DNA of 64,000 bases, taken from UHGV virus genome UHGV-1682877, one strand, 5' to 3'. A program made the translations under genes and the position numbers. How positions within the stretch are numbered: the stretch's first letter is position 1; every line of letters begins with the position of its first letter. The notes below the pieces were generated by a model. That model saw only the letters and a program-made list of their open reading frames with translations, was not told the origin of the DNA and did not search any database. The stretch is from a virus. Positions 16,210-16,842 of the stretch are shown here, piece by piece.

Positions 16210-16842
16210 ATGAGTTATATTTATAGAATTATTAATAATATAAACGATAAGGTTTATATTGGAAAAACTGCTTTTGATATTTCAAAACGATTCAAAGAGC
16301 ATTGTAATGATGCTTTTAAGAAAACAGAAGAAAAAAGACCATTATATGCGGCAATGCGTAAATATGGGATAAAGCATTTTACAATAGAACAAATTGAAGA
16401 GTGCTCTGACGCTGCGGCCGTAGACAGAGAAGCCTATTGGATTAGTATGTATTCTGCTTATGAAAAAGGATATAATGCGACTCTTGGTGGCGATGGTAAA
16501 TTTTTATATGACCACAAAGCAATTGCTTTGCGACTTCAAGAACATCCATATTCTCAAGATGTAGCAAAGGAGTTTGGATGTTGTGTTGATACAGTAAGAA
16601 ATATTGCTAATCAATATGGTATTTCATTATTAGTCAATAATAGCCATAAAAAAACTATTTCTGCTTATAGTAAAAACGGTGTTTTAATAAAAACTTTTGA
16701 ATCTACCTCAGAAGCAGCTCAGTGGTGTTATGATAATCAAAAATGTGCCACTTTGCACTCTGGTGTTAGAAGCCATATAGCACAATGTGCTAATGGGATT
16801 CGTAAATCTGCATATAGTTATATATGGAAATATGAAAATTAA
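16210..16842 (+). CDS. GIY-YIG homing endonuclease (I-TevI-like) embedded in tRNA array
   Basis: N-terminal YIYRIINNINDKVYIGKT ... RFKEH matches the GIY-YIG catalytic module; SD GGAGGG upstream of ATG 16210. Confidence 0.8.
   Translation: MSYIYRIINNINDKVYIGKTAFDISKRFKEHCNDAFKKTEEKRPLYAAMRKYGIKHFTIEQIEECSDAAAVDREAYWISMYSAYEKGYNATLGGDGKFLYDHKAIALRLQEHPYSQDVAKEFGCCVDTVRNIANQYGISLLVNNSHKKTISAYSKNGVLIKTFESTSEAAQWCYDNQKCATLHSGVRSHIAQCANGIRKSAYSYIWKYEN

Follow-up and report, generated by a model that had tools for sequence, protein, structure and literature searches.

How does a homing-type endonuclease gene come to lie within the tRNA array of a phage, and what accompanies it there? The question is raised by a locus in the virus genome UHGV-1682877, of which one strand of 64,000 nucleotides (nt), here called the window, was analysed together with related loci (numbered from L001). 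An open reading frame (ORF) at 16210–16842 had been predicted from the letters alone to be a GIY-YIG homing endonuclease gene inserted between a CAT-anticodon tRNA and an atypical tRNA, and tRNAs are indeed found on either side, at 16015–16087 and 16876–16948. It is likely that this is a free-standing, SegB-like GIY-YIG homing gene, which moves as a cassette made up of the tRNA(CAT), a theta ribozyme, a structured leader and the endonuclease. The elements of the locus are as follows.

16015–16087, plus strand: tRNA(CAT) of the 'Met2' type, called by ARAGORN and matched by the Rfam tRNA model (48 bits over 16016–16087)
[quoted passage not shown]
16146–16179, plus strand: hairpin or palindrome, conserved, TTTTGGGTAC...GTAGCCAAAA, whose loop TTTGGATAATTT hardly varies
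16183–16200, plus strand: hairpin CTCCAT-AATATA-ATGGAG, the 3′ arm of which forms most of the ribosome-binding site GGAGG (16197–16201)
16210–16842, plus strand: GIY-YIG homing endonuclease gene of 210 amino acids (aa), identified from the ORF list, profile matches, catalytic-residue alignment and predicted structure
16876–16948: tRNA of atypical form, its anticodon loop 8 nt long (ARAGORN 'tgaa') and its acceptor stem irregular

The ORF at 16210–16842 is an intact gene for a GIY-YIG homing-type endonuclease. Translation starts at ATG 16210, 8 nt past the GGAGG, and ends with the TAA at 16840–16842. A longer version of the ORF, beginning at ATG 16195, is unlikely to represent the true start since that codon lies inside the hairpin that carries the ribosome-binding site. 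The claim of a clear GIY-YIG module is borne out, as the motifs SYIYRII, KVYIGKT and RFKEH are all present in the translation and the protein matches Pfam GIY-YIG PF01541 (E = 2e-12; 47.6 bits, cut-off 22.6), NCBIfam TIGR01453 (71.8 bits, cut-off 56) and the homing-endonuclease families of PHROG (E = 1e-22 to 1e-26). Homologues number 2684 at E ≤ 1e-10, the top one being 98% identical. Residues Y5, Y16, R27, H31, E74 and N89 align with Y6, Y17, R27, H31, E75 and N90 of I-TevI (PDB 1MK0, 1LN0) and are invariant across an alignment of the 47-member family, such that the full I-TevI catalytic set is intact and none of it degenerate. The AlphaFold model (predicted local distance difference test score, pLDDT, 85.9) finds its best Foldseek matches in the I-TevI catalytic domain, 1MK0 and 1LN0, with template modelling (TM) scores of 0.79–0.81 when normalised to the target. 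The model predicts a catalytic domain at residues 1–91, a disordered linker at 92–98 and, at 102–209, putative helix-turn-helix and NUMOD-like DNA-binding modules, where a three-helix bundle (102–135) would be followed by beta-beta-alpha units. The Pfam matches of this C-terminal region, HTH_28 at 18.5 bits and NUMOD1 at 14.2 bits, are below their cut-offs.

The original prediction allowed the gene to be either free-standing or intron-borne, and only the former has stood. The gene might be suspected to belong to a group I intron, placed within the tRNA or next to it, given that NCBIfam and some source annotations label the family 'group I intron endonuclease' and that the leader is a structured RNA. 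A search of the flanks for intron cores with the Rfam models Intron_gpI and Intron_gpII found nothing at E ≤ 1 over 14000–18500, nor at E ≤ 10 over 16000–16220, and the tRNA(CAT) upstream of the gene is continuous and complete. Moreover, the structured leader is HDV-like in its architecture and not of the group I kind. An intron origin is refuted at the sensitivity of Rfam and is, to us, barely credible.

The non-coding sequence upstream of the gene has the length that had been ascribed to it (122 nt, 16088–16209), but it is more than a plain spacer, as an HDV-like ribozyme and a pair of conserved hairpins lie in it. The ribozyme had been overlooked, as had the replacement of a resident tRNA gene described below. 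Theta ribozymes, a minimal form of HDV-like ribozyme, are known from gut phages, where they adjoin the 3′ ends of tRNAs (Kienbeck et al. 2024, PMC10879173); their published layout runs P1, J1/2, P2, ACC, T, CC, ACGT, GGT, P1′, GG, L4, CTAA, P2′ (PMC10879173). Every one of these segments has its counterpart in the window. The helices are P1 (GAGACAT/ATGTCTT), P2 (TCAACC/GGTTGA, which forms the pseudoknot), P3 (ACC/GGT) and P1.1 (CC/GG), and they are joined by J1/2 (AA), L3 (TCCACGC) and J4/2 (CGAA), with C16131 as the presumed catalytic C. Together the four helices make up the nested double pseudoknot of the theta type, including its conserved core: the sequence ACC-T-CC-ACGC-GGT is invariant between the helices, followed by GG and then CGAA.

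Covariation among nine aligned sequences supports this architecture. P1 and P2 covary; overall, 95.9% of the cells are paired and 11 of 17 pairs have changed on both sides, and the pairing falls to 32–50% if the partners are shifted against each other by one to three columns. P1 occurs in seven variants among the nine sequences and has both-side changes in six of its seven pairs; the corresponding figure for P2 is five of seven. The G1-U pair is found in eight of the nine sequences and the equivalent of C16131 in all nine. A covariance model, R1, built here and derived in part from the window sequence itself, scores the window ribozyme at 60 bits. The leader had also been considered as a generic pseudoknot or a translational operator, an interpretation that was dropped when Rfam and the published layout showed it to be HDV-like. 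The window ribozyme was not matched in the part of the supplementary tables of PMC10879173 that was searched.

In the Rfam alignment A16087 is the last base of the tRNA(CAT), and G1 of the ribozyme is position 16088. Cleavage is predicted on the 5′ side of G16088, directly after the tRNA, and self-scission would hence free the tRNA 3′ end. The tRNA does not encode its CCA and has one irregular acceptor-stem position.

The mobility of the gene is supported by comparison of related arrays that have it with those that lack it, a comparison that yielded three near-identical plus/minus pairs. In the near-identical genome L001 the endonuclease is present with 98% protein identity. L002–L004, assemblies from three independent data sets, have it at the same site with one extra A in an A-run, which truncates the protein to 153 aa. 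The IMG/VR contig L008, by contrast with the window, has no endonuclease at this site, although its flanking 410-aa protein is 98% identical and its tRNA order is the same. The gene is thus not ubiquitous at its position; ubiquity would have told against mobility. In L008 the tRNA-Met and the atypical tRNA are 28 nt apart, as opposed to 788 nt in the window. The two sequences agree up to 15967 (...TATATATTGCAGGCAG) and identity resumes at 16845 (ATATAGACTCATACAGC...), which delimits the following segment.

15968–16844: 877 nt present only in the endonuclease-plus allele; the counterpart in L008 is 63 nt long (8559–8621) and is the body of the tRNA-Met of that relative
15963–16013, plus strand: dead fragment of a tRNA-Phe(GAA) gene, its 3′ portion, which extends from anticodon stem to CCA and has its anticodon changed from GAA to AAA

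As 877 nt in the window face 63 nt of tRNA-Met body in L008, the event was a replacement and not a simple insertion. Comparison of lineages divides the incoming segment into five parts, namely the tRNA-Phe fragment, a tRNA(CAT) different from the resident one, the leader (16088–16209), the endonuclease and the two bases 16843–16844 that separate the endonuclease stop from the resumed identity with L008. The fragment aligns with the 3′ two-thirds of an intact tRNA-Phe that precedes the same tRNA(CAT) in L018–L021 and L034–L038; Rfam gives here only a 21-bit tRNA match over 15920–16010. It joins the first 9 nt of the resident tRNA-Met through a common GGCAG, the first 5 nt of the fragment, an overlap that points to a microhomology junction. 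Intact arrays of tRNA-Phe, tRNA(CAT), leader and endonuclease are found in L018–L022, and arrays with intact tRNA-Phe and tRNA(CAT) that lack both leader and endonuclease in L034–L038. The tRNA(CAT) of the latter is the allele of L001 and L002 and is one base off the copy in the window.

In the second plus/minus pair, L018/L019 versus L036, the flanks are almost identical and the plus allele has a diverged tRNA(CAT), the leader and the endonuclease. The third, L096 versus L110, likewise has near-identical flanks. In L096 the endonuclease stop is immediately followed by 14 nt that duplicate the tRNA 3′ end, and beyond them lies a trailer that has no ribozyme. In none of the three pairs does the endonuclease-specific DNA end, on its right side, more than 14 nt from a tRNA 3′ end. 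Scans of IMG/VR with peptides of the endonuclease itself and with the tRNA(CAT) 3′ end gave no matches, a result that pointed towards endonuclease-minus relatives. A metagenome scan with the flanking 410-aa protein returned four loci only, none of them informative for the endonuclease site, with an HNH gene and an unknown 121-aa ORF within their syntenic arrays.

The frameshift in L002 lies at 10440–10450 and is an extra A in a run of seven, which in the window is at about 16648–16654. It may represent real decay or a slippage-prone site able to gate expression. The frameshift in these sister genomes also bears on whether the window copy could be an inactive relic that is intact by chance, as does the comparison with L001, where dN/dS (the ratio of nonsynonymous to synonymous change) is about 1 at a divergence of approximately 0.8%, too few sites to show selection. 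Such a relic is highly unlikely given a fully open frame that retains all of the catalytic residues behind a conserved ribosome-binding site and leader.

The association between ribozyme and endonuclease extends well beyond the window. The order tRNA(CAT), ribozyme, endonuclease is found in ten of ten sampled endonuclease lineages, in all of which the tRNA ends 122–135 nt ahead of the endonuclease start (59–98% protein identity), and no ribozyme follows the tRNA in the endonuclease-minus loci L008 and L034–L038. The covariance model also detects a ribozyme after tRNA-Pro in L030 and L033, followed by an endonuclease of 54–62% identity, and after tRNA-Glu in L019, followed by a more distant GIY-YIG gene. 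A sample chosen independently of the endonuclease was obtained by scanning IMG/VR for the theta core, which gave 97 sites, 88 of them evaluable. At 30 of the 88, a gene of the endonuclease family is encoded downstream on the same strand at a distance of up to 900 nt, compared with 1 of 90 upstream and none of 88 antisense in the controls. Counted as distinct theta sequences, 15 always have an endonuclease, 2 sometimes and 47 never. Seen from the protein, a theta core occurs within 260 nt upstream of 27 of 30 endonuclease N-termini in these loci and the window.

The module is also found after tRNA-Leu(taa), tRNA-Leu(tag) and tRNA-Pro(tgg). The idea that tRNA(CAT) is the exclusive anchor of the mobile unit was rejected on account of these Leu and Pro tRNAs, and it is countered also by the tRNA-Glu and ribozyme ahead of the distant GIY-YIG gene in L019. 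At two or three theta sites the gene that follows encodes an HNH endonuclease, with a Pfam score above the cut-off in L116 and just below it in L068.

Several observations weigh against the cassette. The IMG/VR theta sample is dominated by one project, 3300045988, and since many contigs come from it the counts are not independent. Some 73% of the distinct theta ribozymes in the sample have no downstream endonuclease, and L110 retains a ribozyme without one, so the ribozyme can exist alone and the endonuclease may merely prefer such sites. As for the ribozyme itself, the Rfam family HDV-F-prausnitzii (RF02682, the Faecalibacterium HDV-like ribozyme) matches precisely this stretch but scores only 19.7 bits in the window (25.8 bits in L044), under its gathering threshold of 44, and no family specific to theta ribozymes came up in Rfam. 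When the 54 nt are folded by energy with nested pairs only, they do no better than their shuffles (z = +0.7), as is expected of a pseudoknot, though it lends no support. Finally, the window enzyme cannot owe target-site immunity to the tRNA body, because its tRNA(CAT) differs by one base from that of the minus allele L036. Immunity through a diverged tRNA was considered as a general explanation and is supported for L018 versus L036, but not for the window, where the tRNA is near-identical to that minus allele.

Some of these points suggest a different arrangement, in which the ribozyme is no part of the mobile element but an ordinary device for tRNA 3′ processing, and the endonuclease targets, or is tolerated at, units of tRNA and ribozyme; the linkage would then reflect target preference together with co-conversion of flanking markers. 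The 47 of 64 distinct theta sequences without a downstream endonuclease would fit this, as would L110, where tRNA and ribozyme stand without the endonuclease between flanks near-identical to those of L096, and the theta-like element that follows tRNA-Ser(tga) with no endonuclease in L001, L002 and L008. The theta paper, moreover, accounts for the ribozymes by tRNA maturation alone (PMC10879173). Nevertheless, we regard this arrangement as somewhat unlikely. Two of the three plus/minus pairs have a minus allele in which the tRNA is present and the ribozyme absent, and the ribozyme accompanies 27 of 30 endonuclease copies in the sample and all ten sampled lineages. The tRNA 3′-end remnant and ribozyme-free trailer downstream of the endonuclease in L096 argue that ribozyme and endonuclease entered a ribozyme-free site together.

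The theta-like element after tRNA-Ser(tga) lies in the second tRNA array, between this tRNA and tRNA-Gly (L001 14239–14292, L002 19180–19233, L008 17163–17216; 25 bits with our own model). The window is without a copy and has only 4 nt in that slot, at 25604–25609, which makes it a presence/absence polymorphism of a ribozyme without an endonuclease.

The ORFs in theta loci were translated with TAG as glutamine because most of the relatives contain in-frame TAG codons. Most endonuclease relatives, among them those in L005, L013, L018, L023, L040, L042 and L045, have one to four of them, and the L005 and L018 genomes encode a suppressor tRNA with a CTA anticodon. The copies of the window and of L047 have no in-frame TAG. 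With both TAG-containing and TAG-free copies, and a window of standard code, the cassette family appears to span phages of different genetic codes.

For DNA cleavage and its site, homing, co-transcription and the direction of transfer we infer the following scheme, in which the cassette is the unit that moves. During a mixed infection the enzyme would cut the genome of an endonuclease-less phage within the 3′ part of a tRNA gene or beside it, and repair would copy the donor cassette, overwriting the resident tRNA gene. In the window lineage the left end would have been joined through the 5-nt microhomology inside the donor tRNA-Phe and the right end at a repeated inter-tRNA motif, which is found as follows.

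16849–16863, plus strand: repeated inter-tRNA motif AGAC[ATG]CA[CT]ACAGCAA, with a second copy at about 15886–15900

The copy at 16849–16863 begins 5 nt beyond the right junction and the same motif follows the endonuclease in other lineages, such that it may have been the source of the right-hand homology. The motif recurs between tRNAs in the window and in related arrays, where it may be a processing or promoter signal.

The endonuclease gene sits in a tRNA operon and has no strong promoter of its own. Strong promoter-like sites occur further upstream in the array, and inside the leader there is only one, a weak sigma-70-like site (TTGAAT, 17 nt, GATAAT at 16138–16166) that overlaps the first hairpin. 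The ribozyme cut would then serve two ends, freeing a correctly ended tRNA, the natural trailer of which is now some 760 nt further downstream, and making the 5′ end of the endonuclease mRNA. Translation is probably restrained by the second hairpin, which covers the ribosome-binding site; it is kept in ten of ten lineages and is part of the minimum-energy fold (z = −2.6). The translation of I-TevI is also held back by a hairpin over its ribosome-binding site.

I-TevI, encoded in the group I intron of the T4 td gene, shares with the window enzyme the catalytic fold and residues and, going by the predicted model, probably the layout of catalytic domain, linker and DNA-binding region, but differs in that the window gene is not in an intron. 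On grounds of analogy the closest counterpart is another T4 enzyme, SegB, a free-standing GIY-YIG homing endonuclease of the T4 tRNA cluster (PMC2330249, PMC13096335). SegB recognises a site of 27 base pairs that includes the T-loop motif GGTTCRANTCC, cuts near the tRNA 3′ end and, in crosses, drives the inheritance of itself and of neighbouring tRNA genes (PMC2330249); its homologues are widely associated with tRNAs (PMC13096335). T4 segB and the window gene are alike in being free-standing GIY-YIG genes that immediately follow a CAT-anticodon tRNA in the tRNA operon of a phage, and both are absent from close relatives and carry neighbouring tRNA genes along. The proteins align pairwise over residues 3–111 only (30% identity over 111 aa, E = 6e-8), and the C-terminal halves of the two give no alignment. 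Judged by anatomy, the window enzyme works like SegB; as only the catalytic domains align, it is not called a SegB orthologue. The spacer between tRNA and segB in T4 is 41 nt, a comparison made by length only, whereas the window has a 54-nt HDV-like ribozyme and two hairpins.

SegB also raises the question of whether the gene owes its retention mainly to a benefit for the phage rather than to selfish spread, a view that is compatible with homing. The benefit could lie in the exclusion or degradation of co-infecting relatives or, as for SegB, in the amplification or exchange of tRNAs against tRNA-targeting host defences. Purifying selection is long-standing, with dN/dS of 0.17–0.29 against 7 diverged lineages, the cassette brings a tRNA gene with it, and SegB, widely tRNA-associated, amplifies tRNA and anti-defence loci (PMC13096335). 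Against this, the presence/absence and frameshifted alleles among near-identical phages fit a selfish cycle of gain, decay and loss, and the cassette is not tandemly amplified in the window. Phage benefit as the main reason for its retention is therefore distinctly unlikely in our judgement.

The window ribozyme resembles the published theta ribozymes segment by segment and in having its predicted cleavage site abut a CCA-less tRNA. In the published set tRNA-Met is among the three commonest partners and the associated tRNAs are usually without an encoded CCA (PMC10879173). The window ribozyme is unlike them in that a homing endonuclease gene has it as its 5′ element, and two lineages have it solely in the endonuclease-plus allele; the theta-ribozyme paper does not mention endonucleases (PMC10879173). 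Recoding is not the context of this ribozyme, as the window phage appears to use the standard code, in which its long ORFs read through.

Other mobile elements have come to similar arrangements. The non-long-terminal-repeat retrotransposons R2 and L1Tc have a 5′ HDV-like ribozyme that cuts their own RNA free of the co-transcript, and they too encode a site-specific endonuclease and are inserted in a structural RNA gene or operon. They are, however, eukaryotic, RNA-mediated and located in rRNA genes, whereas the window has a DNA-based homing element in a phage tRNA operon, and as an analogy the likeness is one of function and not of ancestry. The lariat-capping ribozyme GIR1 of twin-ribozyme introns makes the 5′ end of the mRNA for the homing endonuclease I-DirI, a system that differs from the window in the class and chemistry of the ribozyme, in being intron-borne and in its eukaryotic host. 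No paper on HDV-like ribozymes together with phage homing endonucleases was found in the literature searched, where the only one to join the terms concerned R2 retrotransposons. Hence, while a homing endonuclease in a phage tRNA cluster is already known from T4 SegB, the new element is apparently the fixed partnership with a ribozyme predicted to cleave itself.

It is a tentative extension, for which we see slightly less than an even chance, that theta ribozymes, besides serving tRNA maturation, are the 5′ module of a widespread class of homing-endonuclease cassettes which, in gut phages, insert where tRNAs have their 3′ ends. If this is true, the ribozyme would make the insertion harmless to the tRNA, as an intron or intein does for other homing endonucleases, and would free the endonuclease mRNA from the tRNA co-transcript, a parallel in bacterial viruses to what R2 does with its HDV-like ribozyme. 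Where the endonuclease decayed, its ribozyme would stay on as an orphan, and this would explain why identical theta ribozymes are found beside many tRNA isotypes. Should the coupling be functional, it would represent a third way, after introns and inteins, for a selfish endonuclease to insert harmlessly, as well as a mechanistic reason for the abundance of theta ribozymes and their promiscuous association with tRNAs. It would also be a means by which tRNA genes are moved, among others between phages that recode TAG and phages of standard code.

The claim that such tRNA regions are mobile and mosaic is supported by the presence/absence alleles and by other nuclease genes in other slots of the arrays. 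A PD-(D/E)XK_5 gene in L002 (8006–8449), present also in L003 and L004, occupies the slot of the tRNA-Ile(tat) of the window, and an HNH gene in L012 (1392–1775) that of the tRNA-Asn of L010. A second GIY-YIG gene and a PD-(D/E)XK gene are found in L005 at 12183–12965 and 14619–15053. Judged by their gene content, the syntenic arrays are mosaics of several homing-type elements. An extra ORF of 127 aa with a weak DUF7448 match lies between tRNA-Thr and tRNA-Lys in L001 (14603–14986); the two tRNAs are adjacent in the window (25821–25824), without this ORF. In L007, of the lineage of L005 and L006, a ROOL RNA (699–1352, 320 bits) and a GOLLD-like RNA (1798–2288, 130 bits, gathering threshold 150) lie inside the tRNA array, 300–1900 nt upstream of the endonuclease cassette of that lineage.

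The atypical tRNA at 16876–16948 has counterparts in L008 (8651–8726), L019 (2484–2558) and L042 (3179–3253), and lies outside the cassette, as it is also found in the endonuclease-minus L008. In relatives the slot holds tRNAs with 8-nt loops ('tgtt', 'tttg') or, in L018, a normal 7-nt loop (Asn gtt), a difference of one T. A micro-ORF with its own ribosome-binding site lies in the array of the window at 16995–17051, MDLDDMIFSDEVITISDR, and has a conserved counterpart in the distant relative L036 at about 10625–10685, MFQDIDDMIFDNVETTVSE. There is also a weak match to the Y-RNA-like YrlA (26.6 bits) in the first array, at 15325–15432.

The source of the window is a large phage. Its long ORFs are all on the plus strand, its G+C content is about 30% over 13000–20000, and it encodes a large DNA polymerase, a topoisomerase II subunit, a gyrase B-like topoisomerase subunit, NrdD, RecJ, a DnaB-type helicase and two tRNA arrays. 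A near-identity search of GenBank phages with 14500–18000 gave no match. Just past the second array, at 26571–28094, is a gene for a DUF2828/DUF7788 protein of 507 aa (PHROG 'RNA-binding protein'). An RNA-ligase-family protein and two proteins with S-layer-homology domains are encoded at 29596–30873, 28149–29210 and 36251–37051. RNA-ligase-family proteins are enriched with theta ribozymes (PMC10879173), and the one of this class in the window has a Pfam score of 27.0 bits, which is exactly the cut-off. The two S-layer-homology proteins hint at a Bacillota-type host.

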